DNA of 64,000 nt from a virus (Duplodnaviria > Heunggongvirae > Uroviricota > Caudoviricetes): positions 64,001-128,000 of IMG/VR virus record IMGVR_UViG_3300044807_000039; one strand, 5' to 3'. The position numbers were made by a program, and so were the translations under genes. Under the pieces are notes generated by a model, which was not told the origin of the DNA, did no database searches, and saw only the letters and a list, made by a program, of their open reading frames with translations. Shown piece by piece: positions 5,719 to 27,122 of the stretch; the first letter of the stretch is position 1; every line of letters starts with the position of its first letter.

Positions 5719-6798
5719 GCGAGGGGTAGGGTGCATATAGGGTATGCATACGCATTATATGCGTATGCATATATCTATATTCTACTGTAGGCGCATACCT
5801 ACTACATATGGTGTAGGGAATGAGGGAATATTGTATAAAGCAGATATTAATAAAAGCGTCGAAAAGCATTAAATAAAGGCGCATTTACCCCTAAAAAGCT
5901 TTAATTAACCCGCAAATGCATTAGAAAGGGCCTATATGCGTACAATAGCAAAGCCAATGTTTGTAATTATCTTTATTGCAATCATCATTCTTACCTACCT
6001 AGGTATGGATTGGGCCTTTGAATTCATTAAGGGCCTATTTAACTATAAGGCTACAGGGCACTAATCCTTTAATTGATTACTCTAAGGTGATATTGACCCT
6101 AGTCTGAAACAAACAATAATTACACACTGTTACATTAGCCTATATACGCGTCTATATGGGGGTGCTATAGGGAAAGGGTTGTATTAAGCTATACGCCTAC
6201 TCCCCTACTACCCCCGCCATATACCCCTAGGTGTGTATATAGGACCATACAAGGGCATACAGGGGTACATACGCATGGTGTGTGTACGTAGGGCATGGGT
6301 GTATGGGTGCATAGGCAGGCTCATAGCTAGGGCATGGTGTGCATGGTGGTGTACATAGGCGTACATACATACACATATAGCTATGCATATATAATTAAAT
6401 AGAATAGCAATACATATACCAATACCATTGTGCTAATAGGATAACGAGGGGTGAGTAGGATAGGGTATTAGCATTACTCTATTCTCTATTCATTCATAGT
6501 GATACATTCAATAGCTTAGCTCTATTCATTAGTATTGATCCCCGCATTTATTTTTAATTGAATACATATTCAAAAGAATGGCCCACCAATTGATTATTGA
6601 ATGGGCCATTCATTGAATTAGAATGCGAATTAAAATGCCTCCGAATATGTAAAAAGAATTGATTACCATTCTTTTCTTTACAATTCACAATTCATTTAAT
6701 GTGCGCACTATTTATTTAATTGTTTTTTCTTTCAACCCTACATCGTATACGTTACAAAGTTTGTATCAAAATGTTCCAATTAAAAAGTTACTTAAAGA
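5719..6798. other. long non-coding convergence region rich in palindromes and purine-pyrimidine alternation
   Basis: No credible ORF; 13-bp perfect inverted repeat at 5743-5771; CATA/TATG/GTGT-rich tract at about 6190-6400; AT-rich from 6400 to 6790. Confidence 0.7.
6576..6611. terminator. putative bidirectional terminator
   Basis: GAATGGCCCA / TGGGCCATTC 10-bp inverted repeat in AT-rich flanks between convergent arms. Confidence 0.5.
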
Positions 6799-8660: not shown

Positions 8661-8928
8661 TATTACTCCTCCGTGCTAGCTGCTTATCGATAGCCTCTTC
8701 TGCTTTAAGCAATCTCCTATAGGAGCTAACAGAAAGAGATTTATTTTTAAGCTGCAAATGAATTAGCATTTTGAGAATTCTAAGAACTATCAACGCGCTC
8801 CCCCTTTATTTTTTGGTTAAGATTCACAAGATCCTTTTGTAGCTGAATCCTACATGCGGCTTCTAGCTTATTGCTCTTTAATTCCTTTACTACAATTTTC
8901 CGCATTGCCAATAAACCTAGGTGTTTAA

Positions 8929-9375
8929 CTACCATTGGATATCCTTTGATTTGTTTAATGGATAGGTTTTCCTAAGCTCTCTAATTCCCCCGGGAACTAG
9001 AATTGAAACAACCTCACTCACTACCTTCTTAGGCATATCGTAATACTTAGCAATCTTTGTAATGGTAATTCCTTGCTTAATGTATTCGACGTATTGCCAA
9101 CCCGGTTGCTTTGGTCGGAGATTATCTAAAGCAGGATTCATTTTGTCATGGTCAATATGCTGCAATCCACCAAATGGAATCTCGGATTTAAATGCTCGCC
9201 ATATCTCCCTATGCACCAGAATTCCAATTGAATTTCCGTCCCCTTTAGGAATCGTTGTGAATGCATATCCATTTTTATTGGTGGACAGCTGGAGGTGTCT
9301 TTGCTTATGCGGGGACCAGATTCGGCCGTCTTCGCCTAGCATGTAGCCCGTGTTGTACAGGTCGTGTGTCCGCAT
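8929..9375 (-). CDS. HNH endonuclease with C-terminal HTH-like segment
   Basis: LVHREIWRAF...HIDHDKMNPALDNL HNH motif; RBS GGAGG. Confidence 0.75.
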   Translation of the reverse strand: MRTHDLYNTGYMLGEDGRIWSPHKQRHLQLSTNKNGYAFTTIPKGDGNSIGILVHREIWRAFKSEIPFGGLQHIDHDKMNPALDNLRPKQPGWQYVEYIKQGITITKIAKYYDMPKKVVSEVVSILVPGGIRELRKTYPLNKSKDIQW

Positions 9376-9424
9376 GTGTGCCTCCGTCCGTGCGCGTAAG
9401 TGCAGTCGTAACTACTTCTCTTCG

Positions 9425-9453
9425 AGTTTAGCACACCATTAAAATGATGTCAC
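9425..9453 (-). promoter_or_regulatory. sigma70-type promoter of the HNH gene
   Basis: GTGACA-N17-TAAACT with TGTG extended -10. Confidence 0.5.
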
Positions 9454-9486
9454 CCTTGCTGTGCCGCCCTATTTATTAAGGTCAGA

Positions 9487-9635
9487 CCCCGTAACACGCG
9501 AAAGTAACAAATGGTAACACGGTGGGTAACAACCAAAAACCTACACAGAGAGTGAGAGTAACAAAAAGTAACACTACTCTCTGTGTAGGTGACAAGCCGT
9601 AACACGGGGGTGACACTAGCTTCCGGTGAGTAACC
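9487..9635 (+). repeat. phased 8-bp direct-repeat array RGT(A/G)ACAM with a nested 14-bp inverted repeat (candidate clt locus)
   Basis: GT(A/G)ACA cores at 9491, 9504, 9514, 9526, 9558, 9568, 9589, 9599 and 9610, plus GTAACC at 9630; inverted repeat CCTACACAGAGAGT 9540-9553 / 9576-9589. Confidence 0.85.
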
Positions 9636-10143
9636 AGATGTTAATTTCATTCAAATCCTGCTGGGTGATACCAATAGAAGGATCAACGTAGTGGAGCTTT
9701 GTACGTCCGTGCCTACGCCCTAGCATGAATGCCTGGCCCTCGCGCTTAAAAAATTTGAAGTCATCGTCCATCCAAACCAAATCCCGATTCTTTGCAAAGT
9801 CACCGACGCCCTTAAATTTCCAGACATTCTTATTGCGCAAATCGAAACGGTCAAACTGGACGACCGGCCAATTCTCAGTAAGTCCGATCTTGGGACCAAC
9901 CCAACTATTAGCCTCATCCATCCAGGTTGTAGCCCACGCCAATTCCATTCCCGCGTTCTTCGCATATTGGGTTAGCATAGCCCCATGGTCTTCATTCAAC
10001 CAAACCCTAAATGGCTTGTCGGTCCAACCTGCTGGGGAATATCGATAGGTACTGTAGCCCTCGGGTCGGCGATGTGACTTGGCTCGCCAAGGATTCAATG
10101 GACCATCGACATCAACCAGCAGGAGCGGTTTCGTATTTGTCAT
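9616..10143 (-). CDS. HAD-superfamily phosphatase (HAD_SAK/RNA-repair type)
   Basis: LLLVDVDGPLNP (DxD motif), WATTW and WMDDD motifs; start MTNTK at 10143. Confidence 0.8.
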   Translation of the reverse strand: MTNTKPLLLVDVDGPLNPWRAKSHRRPEGYSTYRYSPAGWTDKPFRVWLNEDHGAMLTQYAKNAGMELAWATTWMDEANSWVGPKIGLTENWPVVQFDRFDLRNKNVWKFKGVGDFAKNRDLVWMDDDFKFFKREGQAFMLGRRHGRTKLHYVDPSIGITQQDLNEINIWLLTGS

Positions 10144-10152
10144 TGGCACTCC

Positions 10153-10686
10153 TTAGCATTTAGTATTCCTGATGGCATTCGTTTCGCGCTGATCATAGGA
10201 GAGCCTGTAGAATTCCTTTACAGCCCTGTATCGACCAATGTAATTACAGATAAATTTTGGCTGCGGCAAGTAGCTACTAGGATCCTTGTCGCCCTTACTC
10301 CTATTTGAACTTTGGGAGACTGCAATAAGGTTGGTAGGATCGTTGTAAAATTTTGCCATTTGTGAGCGTGTCCAAAGGTTAGCACCGGAGTCCCAAGCTT
10401 CCTTGAGTGGGACAATGTGATCGATGTCCATCTTGCTTGAATCGGTAATAGCAGCACTATCGTATGCACTAATCCAGACACCACTAATAGGGTGGCAATC
10501 ACTGTCCACTATGACGTCCTTACCGTCCCGCTGCAAGATCTTTTCACGCGTGTCACAGTTGCCCGTTTTCGACCAGTCGCCCCAGGAATCCCGATTGTAG
10601 GCAGCGCTATAATCAACGCTCTGGGTACATCCGGTCAGAGCAAGAACCGACAGCAGAATCGAACTGATAATAATCTTAAGCTTCAT
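10153..10686 (-). CDS. DUF1524-type HNH nuclease, predicted lipoprotein
   Basis: Signal peptide with lipobox LTGC; DIDHIVPLKEAWDSGA and NLIAVSxSSNRSKGDKDP motifs; start MKLK at 10686 with RBS AAGGAG. Confidence 0.8.
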   Translation of the reverse strand: MKLKIIISSILLSVLALTGCTQSVDYSAAYNRDSWGDWSKTGNCDTREKILQRDGKDVIVDSDCHPISGVWISAYDSAAITDSSKMDIDHIVPLKEAWDSGANLWTRSQMAKFYNDPTNLIAVSQSSNRSKGDKDPSSYLPQPKFICNYIGRYRAVKEFYRLSYDQRETNAIRNTKC

Positions 10687-10702
10687 GAAGACTCCTTTTA
10701 TA

Positions 10703-10747
10703 AAAAGCAAGTGCGCCACATAGAAATTTAACTATGTGGCGCACTGC
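10703..10747 (-). terminator. intrinsic terminator after traB
   Basis: 13-bp perfect inverted repeat GTGCGCCACATAG/CTATGTGGCGCAC followed by TTGCTTTTT on the minus strand. Confidence 0.75.
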
Positions 10748-10754
10748 CTATTTA

Positions 10755-12599
10755 TTAATTTCTCTTGCGTAGATTCGGTGGGAACTTGTAGGTTGCATCC
10801 TCCTTCTCAAGCTCGCCTCCATCTACCTTAACCTGTAATTGCTTATATAGCCATGCTCGTGACAAACCTGTTACCAGCAAAACATCTGCTAGCTTGGGTG
10901 CCTCAAACTCGGTACCCTGTGCTCGCAAGTCCTGCAATGCTTCCTCAAGTACAGCCTTAGCTTCCTCAGCTGGCATCTTAACAGGCTTGTCAAACTCTAG
11001 CAAGACGTCGTGCTTGGCTTTGAGTTCTTCAAGCGCTTCTAGATCATCTTCCACTTCTTCACGTTCCTCCTCCGGATATAAGTCGTCTAGCTCTTCTTCA
11101 TCATTCCCGGGATCTTCATCAAGCTCTGCCTGATATAGATCTCCCAGCGCTCCCAGCGTAACAGGGTCGGTCTCATGGGGCAAGCGGTTCTTTCCCGCCT
11201 CCTCAAGCTCCTCATTTTCTATTAGCAGGGTTCGAGCTGGAGTAGTCCAGTACTCGTCATCTGCGTCAGGATGAACAAGGTAATTATAGCCTTGACGCTT
11301 GTTTTTCCAAATAGCTGGGTTTGCACCTGCATCTGTAACCTCATCTGGCAAAGCAAATGTTGCATCCGAGATGTCTGCTACGCCGAAGCATAGCACCGAA
11401 CTAAATTGCGCGCGGGCAGCTGTATCAACCGCAACATGACTAGCACGCTGCAAGCTGGCTGTAATTTGAATACCAACTGAACGGGCGGTCTCCATCATCT
11501 TAATGAAAGCGGGGTTATTGGCAATAAGCCCCGAAGCCTCTTCAACATGCAAATAAATGAAGCTTAGACCGCAACCTGGCTCCCATTTAGCCAATCGCTT
11601 TCTACCTAGATAGTCAGCTCTAGCTTTTACTAGCTTGGGAAACTTTTTAAAAAGCAGGTCCGCAATTTTTTCCTGGGTAATAACCCAGTCAAGGTAAGGC
11701 ATGACAACACCAAGGGTTTGTTCTCCCTTGGTAATATCAATTACCCACATCTCGGTTTCGGAACGTTTGAAGGCTTCTGCAAAAATGACCTTCGCGGCTT
11801 CGGATTTACCCGAACCATTCATTCCCTGGATGAGCATATGCACCGCACCTAAATGCTTTGAATGCAAACTAAACTGCTCTGGAGTTCCGTCTTCGTACCA
11901 CCCAATGGTCATTGGATCATTTGGTGTTAACTTTTCATCCAACCAAACGTATGGTCTGGTTTCCTTAAGCAGATCTCGCTTTACTAATTTGAAATATGCT
12001 TTGGATGAATCGTCGGCATCGGTACGAATGCGCACTCCGTTCGCAGGTGCCCCAAACAGGCTAGCTAATCGGGGCTGTAGCTTTTGCAGATCGTCTACCG
12101 TGTTAGAACCTCGCTTGAGATTAATAACTCCCTCAGCCGTATCCTTGCCACGTTTTGTAAACTTGTAGCGAGTCCCCGGCATGCCTGCATCGGTGAAGAA
12201 CTTATCTATTGGATCTTCCCGGGGTTCCGAACGAATGGCATGTCTAATGTTCCAACTAAGACCTAGAGTTAACCCACCAAGTAACCAAACGAGAAATATG
12301 CTTGGACTGGGTCCAGCAATTACCATTGCCATTATAAATCCACCAGAAGCGATCATACTCAATAGGGAATGGAATCGACCGAATTCTCTTCGATCTTGTG
12401 AAGCCTTCCAGGTGAATAAACTAAGTATGCTTGTTGAAATACCTAACGATGCTGCTATCTCTGCTGTGTAGTTTGCTTTAAGCCCGATAAGCCAAAGAAC
12501 GACACTTAACGCGCCAACCAAGCCCATAGCAAAATAGGGTTGCAAGAGTAGCATACCCTGATTTGAGGTCTTTTCTACTACCTTCTTGGCACGTTTCAT
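10755..12599 (-). CDS. traB: TraB-like FtsK/SpoIIIE DNA translocase (actinomycete conjugative transfer protein)
   Basis: 614 aa; N-terminal TM helices, Walker A GMNGSGKS, Walker B-like HVEEA, ARSVGI...SLQR motifs, acidic linker, C-terminal wHTH (GLSRAWLYKQL). Confidence 0.8.
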   Translation of the reverse strand: MKRAKKVVEKTSNQGMLLLQPYFAMGLVGALSVVLWLIGLKANYTAEIAASLGISTSILSLFTWKASQDRREFGRFHSLLSMIASGGFIMAMVIAGPSPSIFLVWLLGGLTLGLSWNIRHAIRSEPREDPIDKFFTDAGMPGTRYKFTKRGKDTAEGVINLKRGSNTVDDLQKLQPRLASLFGAPANGVRIRTDADDSSKAYFKLVKRDLLKETRPYVWLDEKLTPNDPMTIGWYEDGTPEQFSLHSKHLGAVHMLIQGMNGSGKSEAAKVIFAEAFKRSETEMWVIDITKGEQTLGVVMPYLDWVITQEKIADLLFKKFPKLVKARADYLGRKRLAKWEPGCGLSFIYLHVEEASGLIANNPAFIKMMETARSVGIQITASLQRASHVAVDTAARAQFSSVLCFGVADISDATFALPDEVTDAGANPAIWKNKRQGYNYLVHPDADDEYWTTPARTLLIENEELEEAGKNRLPHETDPVTLGALGDLYQAELDEDPGNDEEELDDLYPEEEREEVEDDLEALEELKAKHDVLLEFDKPVKMPAEEAKAVLEEALQDLRAQGTEFEAPKLADVLLVTGLSRAWLYKQLQVKVDGGELEKEDATYKFPPNLRKRN

Positions 12600-12940
12600 T
12601 AGACTATCTTAAACTTATCTACCTTAGTCTTCTTTGGTGCTGCGGCAAGCTCCTCAACGAAGCGCTGCTCAAACTGTATCCAGGTTGCGGTACTCTGACC
12701 GGCCGCTAATTTACAAAGCTCTGCTGCCTTGCGTAAGGTTCCCGCAACAACTCTTGCACGAACGGAATTCCTAATGCCCTTAATGCTACGTAGGTTCGCT
12801 TGTAGCATTTCGGCGGAAAAAGAAATATCAATGTATAACTCGTAGAGGATAGAACGAAGATCTGTTAGGTATGCCCTAAGCTCCTCGTTATCCCCTAGTT
12901 CGCGATTCTTAATTTTCGCCATCTTTGTAGCTGCTATCAC
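12599..12940 (-). CDS. traA: TraA-like plasmid/AICE transfer protein
   Basis: GTG start at 12940 after AGGAGG; RARVVAGTLRKAAE...TWIQFEQRF..EL pattern recalled from actinomycete TraA; TAATG-coupled to traB. Confidence 0.6.
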   Translation of the reverse strand: MIAATKMAKIKNRELGDNEELRAYLTDLRSILYELYIDISFSAEMLQANLRSIKGIRNSVRARVVAGTLRKAAELCKLAAGQSTATWIQFEQRFVEELAAAPKKTKVDKFKIV

Positions 12941-12964
12941 TAGTTTTACACCTCCTAATCTTTG

Positions 12965-12993
12965 ATGGTAACAAACCACACGCAGTGTGTCAA
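12965..12993 (-). promoter_or_regulatory. sigma70-type promoter of traA-traB
   Basis: TTGACA-N17-TACCAT; GGTAACAA overlaps the -10 and GTTACC abuts the -35. Confidence 0.7.
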
Positions 12994-13009
12994 CGTTACC
13001 TGGTGTAAT

Positions 13010-13300
13010 CTATTCGGTTACAGCATCCATGAATCTATCGTTATTATTTGGGAACTTGGTATTGTAGTCCTGAATAATAATGCCACCGGTTACAAATAGT
13101 CGTTCTTTGAATCCGGTGACACTATCTAGTCCAGATATCTCGGAATCATATTCGAATGGACAACTGAGAACGTCACCATCCAAGAAATGAAAAGTGAGGG
13201 TGCCGTCGATACCATCGTAGACACCCTCCACAACTCTTACACCTTGGGTGTAAAATGTTTCTTTAATTTGATATAAAAAATCTGCTTTAATTAGCATCAC
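13010..13300 (-). CDS. hypothetical protein
   Basis: 96 aa, RBS GGAGG. Confidence 0.7.
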   Translation of the reverse strand: MMLIKADFLYQIKETFYTQGVRVVEGVYDGIDGTLTFHFLDGDVLSCPFEYDSEISGLDSVTGFKERLFVTGGIIIQDYNTKFPNNNDRFMDAVTE

Positions 13301-13321
13301 TAGCCTCCTAGGCTAATGATA

Positions 13322-13840
13322 TCATCCTTGAGACCATTTTTCCCACTGGAGCTTTTGAAACTTAGCATCCCATAATGCGTGGTGTCCAGGGTATTCAGCC
13401 GGTCGTGGTGGTGGTTGCTGTAATCCACGAATTGTCATGTCCTCATTGGTAAACATGGGTACAGGCTCGGGAAGATTGATCATTGGCCCATAGAGCTGTG
13501 CGAGCGTAACGTGATCGTAGGCACTGCAATGCCCCCAAAGCTCAATGTCTTCACGCGAGGTGTAACGGCCATTGTCGGAAATGAAATCAAGAACGATCTT
13601 CGGGAATGCTTGAATAGTGCAGCCGAATTCTTTAATATCCTTTGGTGGGATCTTATCCAGTACATTATTAATTACCCACAGGTGTGGCTTAACCAAGCCC
13701 TGCTCATATCTCCTGAAATAGGTAGAGTTAATGAGGTAAAGCTCGCGGCCATCTTCCGCTACCATGCCGAGACTAATTGGCTCGATTGTGCGGCCATTCT
13801 CGTCAAACTCCCAGTCGTACCAATATTTTTGTTCCGTCAT
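13322..13840 (-). CDS. DEDDh 3'-5' exoribonuclease (Rv2179c/RNase AS-like)
   Basis: YDWEF..NGRTIEPISLGMVAEDGRE.Y, YDHVTLAQLYG and HHALWDA motifs. Confidence 0.85.
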   Translation of the reverse strand: MTEQKYWYDWEFDENGRTIEPISLGMVAEDGRELYLINSTYFRRYEQGLVKPHLWVINNVLDKIPPKDIKEFGCTIQAFPKIVLDFISDNGRYTSREDIELWGHCSAYDHVTLAQLYGPMINLPEPVPMFTNEDMTIRGLQQPPPRPAEYPGHHALWDAKFQKLQWEKWSQG

Positions 13841-15565: not shown

Positions 15566-15740
15566 CGTGCTTATCCAGTTCTCGCTTCAACTCCGTAAGC
15601 TTCGCATCCCAATTTTTAACATTGGCTTCGTGCATCTCAATGTTAATCTTGGTTTCAAGAATGATTTCATTAGTCCAACTGACATCTCGTTCTAGCTTTG
15701 CAATAGCCTCGGTAAGAACCTGCTTAATGTATTCACTCAT
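15546..15740 (-). CDS. coiled-coil hypothetical protein
   Basis: 64 aa. Confidence 0.7.
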   Translation of the reverse strand: MSEYIKQVLTEAIAKLERDVSWTNEIILETKINIEMHEANVKNWDAKLTELKRELDKHDAPVEA

Positions 15741-16450
15741 TTATTTTCTCCAAAAACTGATTCAAATGTTGCTGGGAAAAGCGGAGCCACAAGATCACGC
15801 ATTGCTTGAGCATATACAAAAATTTCGTGCTGCGCGCGGTGGCCCAAGCGCTCGTCCAATAGGTGTAATAGGGCAGCTAGGGACATCGTTGAACGTAGTC
15901 GTACAAACATACCATACGCGGGGAGGAAAAGCCTTGCCTGCTCCGCGCAGATTCCCATTGACATCCATTTTTCGTACTGCTCTACGCCCTTGTCTACATA
16001 CTCTAGAAGCTCCTTGGTGGCAACCTCTCCAATGCGAGGGTCTACGAGATCACCGGAACCCTGTTTCTTATTCGCTGGTGTTCCACGCCATTCGGTAGCT
16101 TCCGGAATATAAAAGGTGGGTTCTTCAGTAATGTATCGACGTGAGGACTCATTCATGCAGGTGCCATCGTCAATATGCGAGGCCGCGACAATGTATTTCC
16201 AATACTGCCTAGCTGTCATCAACGGCATGTACATTTCGAATTGTAGGGTTGCGTGACGGAAAACCGAGAATTCGCGGTTTCGAACAAGATAGTCCATAAG
16301 CTTTTTATCTGGAGCGCTCAAACCCATAGGGCTCAGAGTGGTTTCTTTGTCGAAAGAAACTCGGGCGGCATTAACAACTGTGGCATCATTACCCATGTAG
16401 TCAGTCAGGCGCACGTAGCCCTTATTTAAAAGGTCAATACGATCAGTCAA
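15737..16450 (-). CDS. thyX: FAD-dependent thymidylate synthase
   Basis: VVNAARVSF, FRHA and NESSRRY motifs, CAEQARLFLP; likely TTG start at 16450 (RBS GAGGAG). Confidence 0.92.
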   Translation of the reverse strand: MTDRIDLLNKGYVRLTDYMGNDATVVNAARVSFDKETTLSPMGLSAPDKKLMDYLVRNREFSVFRHATLQFEMYMPLMTARQYWKYIVAASHIDDGTCMNESSRRYITEEPTFYIPEATEWRGTPANKKQGSGDLVDPRIGEVATKELLEYVDKGVEQYEKWMSMGICAEQARLFLPAYGMFVRLRSTMSLAALLHLLDERLGHRAQHEIFVYAQAMRDLVAPLFPATFESVFGENK

Positions 16451-16589
16451 GATATTCAAGCTCCTCAAGTTCAACCTGCGTAATTCTATTGTCGTCCACT
16501 AGCACGAGATTGTTGGTGGGATGATATTTTAATCTATCGGCTTCTTTGTCCGTAAGGTCAGCCACCAGAACTATTTTATAGGTTGCCAT
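16443..16589 (-). CDS. small hypothetical protein (48 aa, not in track)
   Basis: MATYKIVLVADLTD...ELEYLD*. Confidence 0.55.
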   Translation of the reverse strand: MATYKIVLVADLTDKEADRLKYHPTNNLVLVDDNRITQVELEELEYLD

Positions 16590-25042: not shown

Positions 25043-25545
25043 TGGCGACAAGAACAATGCAGCTGCCAGCCGGGACAACCCATACCGAGCTTATAGCTCT
25101 ACCTCTTACTGGTAGTTGGCTCGGTATGGTTCGTGTTGGTATCGCAACCCAAAAAGCAAATGCAACGATTCACGAATGGGTATTTATATGGCCAAATATG
25201 CCTAATAATAAAACAGGCTATAGGCGTACGGCTATGTCGAGTGCTAATAATTATTATAACTCTACGCTCACTCCGGATGTAGCTCAGTACCGTTGGTTAT
25301 GCCAAAATGAGTCGTTAGTGAAGATAACCTATACCTCAGCTAATCCAATCAGTCTTATCTATGAGACCAACAGGGTAATTTTACCATCACCATATCCCAA
25401 GTTGTCCAATACGCCATGGAATATTTCTAGTGCTACGCCATGGACTGGAGCCGGTAATAATCTTACTGGTCCAAATCCTACGGAAAGGGTGGCTGGACCA
25501 ACCGCACAACTTACAGGATTTGTGTATTGGAAGCCAACAACATGA
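25042..25545 (+). CDS. hypothetical (virion-associated?) protein, paralog 2
   Basis: 167 aa; LPAG, NNYYN, ESLVKITYT.ANPI..IYET and YW.P shared with paralog 1. Confidence 0.8.
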   Translation: MATRTMQLPAGTTHTELIALPLTGSWLGMVRVGIATQKANATIHEWVFIWPNMPNNKTGYRRTAMSSANNYYNSTLTPDVAQYRWLCQNESLVKITYTSANPISLIYETNRVILPSPYPKLSNTPWNISSATPWTGAGNNLTGPNPTERVAGPTAQLTGFVYWKPTT

Positions 25546-27122
25546 GTAAATATGATCAGCTAGCTTTTGCTAGTAAGCCAAACCTTTATCTGGCTGCCCC
25601 AAGTCTACTAGATCAATCTAATTCTGGAGCTTTTACGTTCCTGGTAAACAATCTAGCGTTGGGTGGCCAGCCAATCATATATGGCCATGAAAGCTCATTT
25701 AAGCTGGAGACAGGAGCAACCTGTAGTGTCGGTGGCAACCCGGTCTTTAGGTTCGGTGTTACCACTGAACTTGTAATGCTTGCTTCGTTGCCAAGTCAAG
25801 AGACTGAGGTAATTGTGGCAAGTAATGGTAGTGGTCTGTTCATTACTCCGACTTCTGTTGTCTTGCGTTTAAATTACATCAAGGACGAATCCGCAAAATC
25901 GTTAACGGCTGAAATTCTTGTACCGGATTGGAGTCAAAAACTCTATATCACAATTTCGATCGGGGACAATCAGGCGTCATTGACGGTGAACAATAAATCA
26001 ACAACCGTTATTTTGGATGGACTATTGGACAGTGCTATTACCAGCACTAATATAGGTGGCACCTTCGCCACAGGTTACTTCATCCTATTGGATGGATTTG
26101 GCGTATATAGTCGAAAGCTTCTAAACAAAAACGATGCATTAAATGATCCAACTCGCGGACATAACATATATGCGTCTGCTGTTTACGGTGCCAATTCAAC
26201 AGACTTTTCTACTTATAGCAGTATCGAGGCAATTAATGTAAATATAGGCGATTTCCAATACGTCAATTACGTAGGTCTAGATCATGAAAGTCTTTTGTAT
26301 AGATACCAGGTGTCAGCTAACGATGGAAACGTTTCATATATTGCCGTGCAGACAAACAATGATTCATTAGTTGTGGAATGGGATCTTAATGGTGGAGAGG
26401 TCGGAACATTCTTGCGTTACTTGGTGGTTCCAATTACTTCGCCAGGTAGCGTCATTACGTTTAAAATTCCAGCGCAAGGCTCTGGAGAATTTAATATGCG
26501 TATTGAAAATATACTGTCTGGAAACGTAATGTCCGAAACTCCTGCATTTCTGCGGACTACGGGTAAGCCAATTTTTCCAGCGGAGCCATCTGACTCTATT
26601 GTTAACTGTCCTCCAGGTGTAATTATGGACTTCGCAAGCTTTGAAGGTACCTGGCTTGAGCAGGGTATCGAGAGCTGGACCTTGCCTAAGTCGGTTGAAT
26701 TGATTTTTAAGCCGGATGAAGCTGGAGTAATATTTTCTAGTTCTAATGGAGTGATCAGTACCAGTGCTCAGAGCGGTTATAGTATGTGGCTTAATGGGGT
26801 GGCGGTAGCAAATCTAACCAACATCCTTATGAATCAATGGAATCATCTTGTCCTTATTAACACTACTCCAACGGCTACAACCTTTACTTTGAATACGAAT
26901 GGGACTTCAGTTCCAACAAAGATGCGCTATCTTTTACTTTCTTCATACCGTCAAGAATTAGTTCAAGCCGATATTGAGCAAATGTATAAGGTGTCAATTG
27001 GAGTGGATACTATTACCGTAAATGAAGTACCAGTCGTTGTAGCCGAAGGAATGTTTGAAAACAGTCAACCCTTTCAGGTATTTGGTAATGTTTGGTCAAT
27101 TGTTGGTGCTGGCGGAAACTAA
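25542..27122 (+). CDS. minor structural protein with LamG/ConA-like domains
   Basis: Start MSKYDQ at 25542 (ATGA overlap); beta-rich, WNHLVLI LamG-like motif. Confidence 0.65.
   Translation: MSKYDQLAFASKPNLYLAAPSLLDQSNSGAFTFLVNNLALGGQPIIYGHESSFKLETGATCSVGGNPVFRFGVTTELVMLASLPSQETEVIVASNGSGLFITPTSVVLRLNYIKDESAKSLTAEILVPDWSQKLYITISIGDNQASLTVNNKSTTVILDGLLDSAITSTNIGGTFATGYFILLDGFGVYSRKLLNKNDALNDPTRGHNIYASAVYGANSTDFSTYSSIEAINVNIGDFQYVNYVGLDHESLLYRYQVSANDGNVSYIAVQTNNDSLVVEWDLNGGEVGTFLRYLVVPITSPGSVITFKIPAQGSGEFNMRIENILSGNVMSETPAFLRTTGKPIFPAEPSDSIVNCPPGVIMDFASFEGTWLEQGIESWTLPKSVELIFKPDEAGVIFSSSNGVISTSAQSGYSMWLNGVAVANLTNILMNQWNHLVLINTTPTATTFTLNTNGTSVPTKMRYLLLSSYRQELVQADIEQMYKVSIGVDTITVNEVPVVVAEGMFENSQPFQVFGNVWSIVGAGGN

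Follow-up and report, generated by a model that had tools for sequence, protein, structure and literature searches.

Phage spread is usually conceived as lysis followed by re-adsorption. What, in such a life cycle, might a tailed phage do with the DNA-transfer genes of an actinomycete conjugative plasmid? The question is raised by a two-gene operon, traA–traB, at positions 10755–12993 of a 64,000-nucleotide stretch of DNA (hereafter the window) that comprises bases 64001–128000 of IMG/VR virus record IMGVR_UViG_3300044807_000039, a genome of 132,127 bp rated complete. The window also holds tailed-phage genes, encoding a portal, a maturation protease, a capsid protein, a 2066-amino-acid (aa) tape measure and minor tail proteins. 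In Streptomyces, TraB is the sole protein essential for conjugation; assembled as a hexameric pore in the membrane, it binds the 8-bp repeats of a plasmid site, clt, with its C terminus and pumps unprocessed double-stranded DNA (dsDNA) (PMC4447253). We propose, with moderate confidence, that the phage carries a complete and functional traA–traB–clt cassette, which was captured once by Stanwilliamsviridae-like phages of about 125–140 kb, has been kept by purifying selection and would export phage dsDNA.

The traA–traB operon

The operon and the domains of its second product are laid out as follows.

12965–12993, minus strand: sigma-70-like promoter, TTGACA-17-TACCAT with extended −10 TG (consensus scan, 10/12 matches)
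12599–12922, minus strand: traA, 107 aa, helical, no membrane segment (NF041213 match, homologues)
12237–12551, minus strand: TraB N-terminal membrane domain, four hydrophobic helices, residues ~17–121 (AlphaFold2, hydrophobic sequence)
11802–11825, minus strand: Walker A P-loop GMNGSGKS, TraB residues 259–266 (sequence reading)
10785–10970, minus strand: TraB C-terminal winged helix, residues 544–605, H-E-H-H-E-E topology (full-length and domain models)
10755–12599, minus strand: traB, 614 aa, predicted membrane-anchored FtsK-fold dsDNA translocase (NF041214 match, model)
10710–10745, minus strand: intrinsic terminator, 14-bp stem and T-run, after traB (terminator scan)

A preliminary description of the locus, drawn from the letters and their open reading frames (ORFs), had proposed a promoter driving a translationally coupled two-gene unit that ends in a terminator, with a first gene resembling TraA and a second encoding N-terminal membrane helices, a P-loop, an acidic linker and a winged helix. 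All of these elements were recovered here. The promoter ranks first among 12 consensus matches in window positions 8800–13400, and most of the loci displayed from related phages have a TTGACA-N17/18-TGTTACnnT promoter at the same spot ahead of traA. The maximal ORF of the first gene spans 12979–12599; homologues place the true traA start at the ATG at 12922 (MAKIKNREL), and a GGTGACA near this start codon forms part of the Shine–Dalgarno region. The traA stop and the traB start share one base at 12599 (TAATG), indicating that the two genes are translationally coupled.

TraB matched the NCBIfam family NF041214 (plasmid_TraB) over residues 33–605 at E = 2.1e-111, the next NCBIfam family reaching E = 0.006. 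General motor families were far less informative: Pfam FtsK_SpoIIIE (PF01580) fell below its gathering score (E = 0.14; 12 bits, cut-off 24), Pfam otherwise gave a weak P-loop match (DUF87, E = 3e-4), and a PDB sequence search with the TraB family profile returned P-loop-level matches alone. By tblastn against 72,556 plasmids, TraB hit 58 records, all actinomycete (50 from Streptomyces) and several annotated traB, at 30–34% identity. An AlphaFold2 model (mean predicted local distance difference test (pLDDT) score 86.8) comprises four membrane helices (residues 2–42, 45–66, 72–95 and 99–121, pLDDT >84), an alpha/beta motor (~130–460), an acidic helical linker (~495–535) and the winged helix. 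Motor residues G259 and K265, the Walker B residues E353/E354, R396 and Q384 are invariant in 64 phage and actinomycete TraB proteins. Foldseek with the whole protein gave the FtsK motor as the best match (2ius/6t8b, E = 4e-16, ~400 aligned columns); TcpA, a conjugation coupling protein, and EccC came next. Modelled in isolation, the tail again folded as an H-E-H-H-E-E winged helix (pLDDT 86.6); Pfam returned nothing significant for it, and Foldseek returned generic winged-helix DNA binders (E = 0.03–0.15) without singling out the FtsK gamma domain.

The TraA assignment also held: the protein matched NCBIfam NF041213 (plasmid_TraA) at E = 3.3e-13 and 50 bits (cut-off 80), and its homologues in related loci carry precomputed PF28214 TraA-like matches. 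In 23 of the 24 phage loci the gene overlaps traB or lies directly against it. Conversely, a profile built from the phage TraA proteins found the ORF directly upstream of traB in 12/12 actinomycete loci of high guanine–cytosine (GC) content (E = 1e-10 to 4e-17). A structure prediction for a TraA–TraB complex, run without controls, scored 0.02, below the mark, a value that counts neither towards nor against binding.

A search for TraB homologues yielded 62 protein clusters at 43–76% identity, many on contigs of 125–140 kb; below these phage clusters there is a gap in identity, with actinomycete TraB appearing from 34% downward. In a maximum-likelihood tree, 26 phage TraB proteins formed one clade (Shimodaira–Hasegawa-like approximate likelihood ratio test (SH-aLRT) 99) nested among actinomycete TraB, which points to one capture followed by long retention. 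Within the clade, the ratio of nonsynonymous to synonymous substitution rates (dN/dS) was 0.01–0.11 for traB, among pairs with informative dS, and 0.03–0.09 for traA. The conjugation-type identity put forward in the preliminary description was thus upheld by both the hidden Markov model search and the phylogeny, in which TraB did not group with packaging or other non-conjugative FtsK ATPases, and the comparisons support its membership of the actinomycete conjugative TraB lineage rather than that of chromosomal FtsK.

A clt-like array downstream of traB

A conjugative TraB acts on a cis site, and a candidate for one lies 1.1 kb downstream of traB.

9491–9615, minus strand: clt-like array, nine same-orientation TGTTAC/TGTCAC units on the traB strand (repeat scan)
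9385–9486, minus strand: cis-site tail, comprising TCTGACC (9480–9486), inverted GGTGACA (9448–9454), TACGACTGC (9402–9410) and a GC-alternating stretch

The nine units are packed into 125 bp at spacings of 10–13, 21 or 32 bp. The array is the strongest local 6-mer cluster of the genome: it holds 9 of the 61 genome-wide GT[AG]ACA sites within 120 bp, the sole such cluster in 132 kb, and array-word sites are divided 61 versus 54 between the strands genome-wide. We scanned related loci from IMG/VR, Logan assemblies and JGI metagenomes (given here by L numbers) with an unbiased k-mer search, which detected an equivalent same-orientation array in 25 of 26 phage loci, again downstream of traB. No such array was found in the 50 kb examined of Beuffert, a cultured phage that lacks traB. 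In many loci (L004/5/6, L010, L039, L045–49 and L052–55) the array begins within ~25 bp of the traB stop, in L010 as five TGTCACC units that start at the stop codon itself, and direct adjacency is therefore probably the basic arrangement; in other loci, including the window, variable cargo or HNH genes lie between traB and the array.

As a positive control, the same k-mer scan was run on actinomycete TraB loci of 68–73% GC, where arrays of TGACACC turned up immediately behind traB. This word is the DC1 repeat of the clt of plasmid pWTY27, which is footprinted by Tra and required for transfer (Wang et al. 2012, PMC3583192). The resemblance extends beyond the repeats: the order last repeat, TCTGACC, GGTGACA is common to phage loci (the window, L004, L007, L009 and L044) and to actinomycete clt regions of 68–70% GC (L013, L016, L018, L020 and L023). 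Because repeats, TCTGACC–GGTGACA and a GC-alternating tail are common to both, the relationship goes beyond mere similarity, and this shared organization shows the phage cis site to be homologous with the clt proven by experiment for the pWTY27 class. The sequence comparisons further indicate that traA, traB and clt were evidently gained as one unit.

Selection on the array is suggested by the pattern of its conservation. Repeat cores were conserved at 76% between related loci versus 55% for spacers (Fisher p 1e-7), the alignments of distant pairs being rough, and at 98% versus 83% in the closest locus pair. The cis-site motif has been kept despite a shift in overall GC from ~70% to 45%.

Just downstream of the array, TACGACTGC is accompanied by alternating GCGCGYGCGC (window 9385–9410; also L002–L007, L038, L039, L045 and L047). 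This stretch resembles the TAGGTCA...GCGCGTGCGCG that follows the clt repeats of actinomycete loci L013, L018, L020, L022 and L023. We considered TACGACTGC as a repeated phage promoter and rejected the idea, as it occurs once in the genome. A separate observation concerns the viral contig L011 (IMGVR_UViG_3300022917_000001, 70% GC, 59.7 kb), the TraB of which is 33% identical to that of the window over its full length; the array downstream of its traB consists of GGGGTGACA units, the reverse complement orientation of the phage motif. L011 forms a clade with P0068 and P0070 that is placed beside a group of the phage proteins plus P0064 (SH-aLRT 94).

Is the array read by TraB? In pSVH1, helix 3 of the winged helix sets specificity, as later papers summarize it (Vogelmann et al. 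2011, via PMC3583192 and PMC4447253). Array words differ between phage loci (TGTTAC, TGTAACC, TGTCACC, TGTTACCaCC and TGTCACACC), and the putative recognition helix S580–L588 (SRAWLxKxL) varies alongside them, in few independent events: Arg585 occurs solely with TGTAACC, in two clades separate on the tree, His/Tyr585 is paired with TGTCACC, and the window TraB combines a unique Leu579 with its TGTTAC array. This covariation is a suggestive sign that TraB reads the array, in line with the pSVH1 rule. The natural word variants (TGTTAC, TGTAACC, TGTCACC and TGTCACACC) and the helix changes paired with them offer material on DNA reading by the winged helices of TraB and FtsK types. We also considered whether TraB might be its own repressor, acting through the array motif at the traA promoter, and rejected this possibility: the promoter TGTTAC is kept in loci where arrays use TGTCACC or TGTCACACC, and is for that reason better read as an extended −10 element.

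Proposed function and rival explanations

The nearest cultured relatives of the window phage are Streptomyces phages of the Stanwilliamsviridae (Beuffert, Blueeyedbeauty, Coruscant and Mildred21; portal ~50% and capsid ~62% identity), with which it has in common the gene order ThyX, glycosyltransferase, ribonucleotide reductase, portal. Its genome has a GC content of 45%. The preliminary description had seen no integrase in the window, and this extends to the whole genome: tyrosine and serine recombinases, ParA and ParB gave no PF00589, PF00239, PF13614 or PF02195 match in the complete 132,127 bp, with controls positive. These absences, together with that of TraR (below), fit a virulent phage. 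To our knowledge, the cultured members of the Stanwilliamsviridae are all virulent. An AT-rich zone of 0.9 kb (window 5885–6798), rich in palindromes and without an ORF of at least 55 aa, separates convergent rightward and leftward gene blocks. The 812-bp terminal repeat of Beuffert is located at the syntenic position, with the leftward early block ending ~130 bp from the repeat; because of this synteny, the physical genome end probably lies near ~5.9–6.8 kb of the window, ~2.7 kb from the clt-like array. The 'direct terminal repeat' of the IMG/VR record was rejected as a physical end, being an assembly overlap of just 127 bp.

In Streptomyces, primary transfer of a plasmid needs no more than TraB and clt, and TraB has also been linked to spreading across septal cross-walls (PMC4447253). 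By analogy, the phage operon, which lies in the leftward early region, would be transcribed early by host RNA polymerase from a sigma-70-type promoter of its own. TraB would enter the membrane by its four helices and assemble an FtsK-like ring, TraA being a conserved accessory protein, and the winged helix would dock on the phased 6–7-bp repeats of the array on phage DNA. From the infected compartment, phage dsDNA would then be pumped by the motor across a septal cross-wall or into a hypha in contact with it, and infection might in this way spread through the mycelium without virions or receptors. Movement of DNA across septa or between hyphae, as suggested in the preliminary description, gains a firmer footing from the homology, architecture, cis site (with its proven counterpart), conservation and selection shown here, but ring assembly, binding to the array, the substrate and direction of pumping and the gain for the phage are inferred. 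A more specific and tentative proposal, which we consider possible but somewhat short of probable, is that the captured conjugation motor serves a phage without detectable lysogeny or maintenance genes as a 'movement protein' for its clt-marked 132-kb genome, with no need of capsids, receptors or lysis. If true, this would be a bacterial counterpart of plant-virus movement through plasmodesmata.

In the multicellular Streptomyces and its relatives, cross-walls and development set limits on phage infection (Luthe et al. 2023, PMC10117723). The clade-wide retention of a conjugation cassette suggests a second, virion-free route, which would bypass both receptor-based resistance and compartment barriers and, in a lineage that shows no sign of lysogeny, would make phage and conjugative element harder to tell apart. 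The equipment is compact, two genes and a cis site in 3.6 kb.

Several points weigh against the export of phage DNA by a functional cassette. TraB scores 373 bits, against an equivalog cut-off of 800 for NF041214; with both TraA and TraB below their equivalog cut-offs, they are to be seen as divergent homologues. No traA was called upstream of the shortest and most divergent phage TraB proteins (563–584 aa), those of L010 (6001–7692) and of the contig of P0061. Intramycelial plasmid spreading needs Spd proteins (PMC4447253). No Spd-like conserved neighbour was found, traA and traB alone adjoining one another in all loci, with no genome-wide Spd scan made; this is weak evidence, as Spd proteins have no general model. 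A GntR-type TraR was likewise not found above threshold in the complete genome (best E = 0.044). That a 132-kb genome, probably linear or concatemeric in the cell, can be a TraB substrate is unproven, and the covariation of helix and motif, with its few independent events, is suggestive. The host is assigned from relatives alone. The traB locus had no match in 50,697 GenBank phage records (tblastn and megablast), so that no cultured carrier was found, and a direct search confirmed that Beuffert lacks traB. Finally, a lookup of sequencing runs returned soil DNA runs alone and no RNA run holding the traA–traB stretch.

The rival that survives best also takes the cassette to be functional, turning it to DNA handling within cells rather than to spread of infection: genomes might, for instance, be moved or kept across closing sporulation or vegetative septa and so end up trapped in spores or other compartments as a carrier state. 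Chromosomal FtsK/SpoIIIE works likewise and its fold is that of the TraB motor; the recognition repeats are directional, in a single orientation; and papers on Streptomyces phages mention FtsK-like genes and suspect phage manipulation of host development. We nevertheless consider it improbable, given that TraB is of the conjugative lineage rather than that of chromosomal FtsK, that the cis site is homologous to one proven in conjugal transfer, and that the lysogeny or maintenance genes of a long-lived carrier state were not found.

Somewhat less probable again is that the array is no docking site for TraB but a regulatory operator or a replication origin (iterons) that lies downstream of traB by chance. 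Promoter-like elements do follow the array, the inverted GTGACA coinciding with a −35-like hexamer (9453–9425), and the iterons of Streptomyces plasmids look alike, those of pWTY27 RepA among them (PMC3583192). Yet 25 of 26 loci have the array together with traB, although the genes beyond it vary; its homology to the proven pWTY27-class clt region takes in the TCTGACC–GGTGACA tail; and it is missing from traB-less Beuffert. No Rep-like gene adjoins it, the Rep search of the genome not having been exhaustive.

TraB might instead serve host takeover or competition, as a membrane pore, a killer (Kil) or a means of interfering with resident conjugative elements. Unregulated traB is toxic, which is the Kil function of plasmids; plasmid traB is not tolerated without traR (PMC4447253) and the phage lacks TraR; traB is moreover among the early genes, and related loci carry anti-defence homologues (Acb5, Acb2/Tad1) in the same block. 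A killer, however, needs neither a conserved winged helix with a matching selected array on the phage's own DNA nor ATPase residues that are invariant across the clade, and we regard this role as quite unlikely.

A part in genome entry is more doubtful still. In a two-step injection like that of T5, the first segment would express TraB, which would recognize the array and pull in the rest; the probable physical end, placed by Beuffert synteny, is ~2.7 kb from the array, and the operon promoter is of host type. FtsK/SpoIIIE/TraB motors, however, are generally known to export DNA from their own compartment, and import would call for reversed polarity; related phages that lack traB still inject their DNA, and the position of the genome end is itself an estimate. 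Least credible is an inert passenger, the remnant of a plasmid or an actinomycete integrative and conjugative element (AICE) with no phage function: the cassette is absent from all cultured relatives and sits in a variable region rich in HNH and other cargo genes, but it traces back to a single acquisition and has persisted down to 44% identity, with low dN/dS in both genes and a cis-site motif kept although GC fell from ~70% to 45%.

Neighbouring genes and known systems

Two cargo genes sit between the traB terminator and the array (9616–10719), and small genes with matches to anti-defence families occur in related phages.

10153–10719, minus strand: lipoprotein-type DUF1524/GmrSD_C nuclease gene (Pfam)
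9616–10149, minus strand: HAD-like protein gene (Pfam)
L009 9706–10032, L010 9351–9584, L038 8964–9200, L039 4025–4234 and L040 9647–9889: Acb5 or Acb2/Tad1_hairpin small genes

The nuclease (177–188 aa) has a lipoprotein signal, LALTGC, and a GmrSD_C/DUF1524 HNH-type domain (Pfam E = 2e-11); an extracytoplasmic phage DNase makes a curious pairing with a DNA-export module. Among L002–L007, both cargo genes are present in the window and its closest relative group L002 alone (nuclease 47% identity). L009 has a HAD_SAK_2-like gene in the same slot, and L004, L005, L006 and L010 have neither cargo gene, the array directly following the traB stop. The cassette of the window is flanked by genes for an Rv2179c-like 3'–5' exoribonuclease (13322–13840, minus strand) and ThyX (15737–16474, minus strand). 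Some lineages carry the exoribonuclease gene upstream of traA, whereas others (L004, L006, L007 and L039) have it beyond the downstream array, indicating rearrangement around a fixed traA–traB–array core. The small genes listed above, which have precomputed Pfam matches to the anti-defence sponges Acb5 and Acb2/Tad1_hairpin, belong to the same leftward early block of related phages. Farther off, a 531-aa ORF (window 25527–27122, plus strand), which precedes the portal gene across a 380-bp gap, has no PHROG or Pfam match, and its Beuffert counterpart, gene 21, is annotated hypothetical; by position, it is a candidate for the large terminase of Stanwilliamsviridae-like phages.

By sequence, the nearest characterized relative of the cassette is the pWTY27 class, with a gene order like that of pSN22 and pSVH1. 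The Tra of pWTY27 and the TraB of L013–L023 are, like phage TraB, membrane-anchored FtsK-like translocases with a C-terminal DNA-binding tail, and the loci L011–L023 have a TraA-like ORF just upstream of traB, as in the phage. In this class, too, a direct 7-bp repeat array begins at the 3' end of the gene or shortly beyond it, the word being TGACACC as against TGTCACC, TGTTAC or TGTAACC in the phages (1–2 positions differ). The two sides differ in protein sequence (~30–34% identity), in GC (~70% versus 45%), in the 1.1 kb of cargo before the array in the window, and in the carrier, which here is a 132-kb tailed phage in which no plasmid replication genes, in a search for Rep that was not exhaustive, and no partition genes or TraR were found.

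The pSVH1/pSN22 systems (TraB, 8-bp-repeat clt, Orf108/TraA, TraR and Spd; Thoma et al. 2015, PMC4447253) likewise have a small gene translationally linked upstream of traB, and their TraB has the same domain order of membrane domain, motor and winged helix; the model there is that helix 3 of the winged helix reads short direct repeats, as is proposed for the phage. They differ from the phage, which has no Spd genes recognized beside the cassette and no GntR-type TraR; moreover, hexamer formation, pore formation and peptidoglycan binding have been shown for pSVH1 TraB, whereas phage TraB is known from sequence and model alone. With chromosomal FtsK/SpoIIIE (KOPS/SRS) the phage protein has a principle in common, a motor fold with a winged helix that reads short oriented words, but FtsK sites are dispersed with strand bias whereas those of the phage are clustered in one array.

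Among phages, FtsK-like genes of Streptomyces phages have been mentioned without an assigned function (bioRxiv 10.1101/2024.02.16.580700, PMC13587820 and PMC11536984). Those of Coruscant, Mildred21 and Naboo (Boydwoodruffvirinae) encode proteins similar in length to phage TraB (612–620 aa) at another genome position. In the Coruscant protein (L059, MT711976.1 72480–76010), the N-terminal segment is hydrophobic, a P-loop (IIAGPGGGKS) and a Walker B motif are present, and a stretch at the C terminus resembles a helix-turn-helix. This protein and its counterparts in Mildred21 (L060) and Naboo (L061) match the TraB model over the ATPase core only, at E = 1e-7 to 1e-9 versus 1e-111, and a repeat array was not detected beside these genes in the 3.5 kb examined. 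Our literature searches returned nothing on TraA, TraB or clt in Streptomyces phages of the Stanwilliamsviridae.

The closest precedent, and the experimental one for such a second route of spread, is pZL12/phiZL12, described in later papers as a Streptomyces plasmid-phage, a tailed-phage genome with tra genes and conjugal transfer (Zhong et al. 2010, via PMC4487206 and PMC3583192). According to PMC4487206, pZL12 has phage-particle genes and encodes a ParA and a ParB of its own; the original paper names a plasmid/lytic phage cycle in its title (Zhong et al. 2010, J Bacteriol 192:3747). Phage carriage of a TraB transfer module is therefore, as a general kind, already known. Compared by description, the pZL12 relative pSLE1 has 69% GC, against 45% for the present 132-kb phage, in which no ParA, ParB, integrase or TraR was found. 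The novelty here lies in the carrier, a large phage lineage of low GC without maintenance genes, and in its minimal traA–traB–clt cassette, with the homology of the cis site and the variation of helix and motif.

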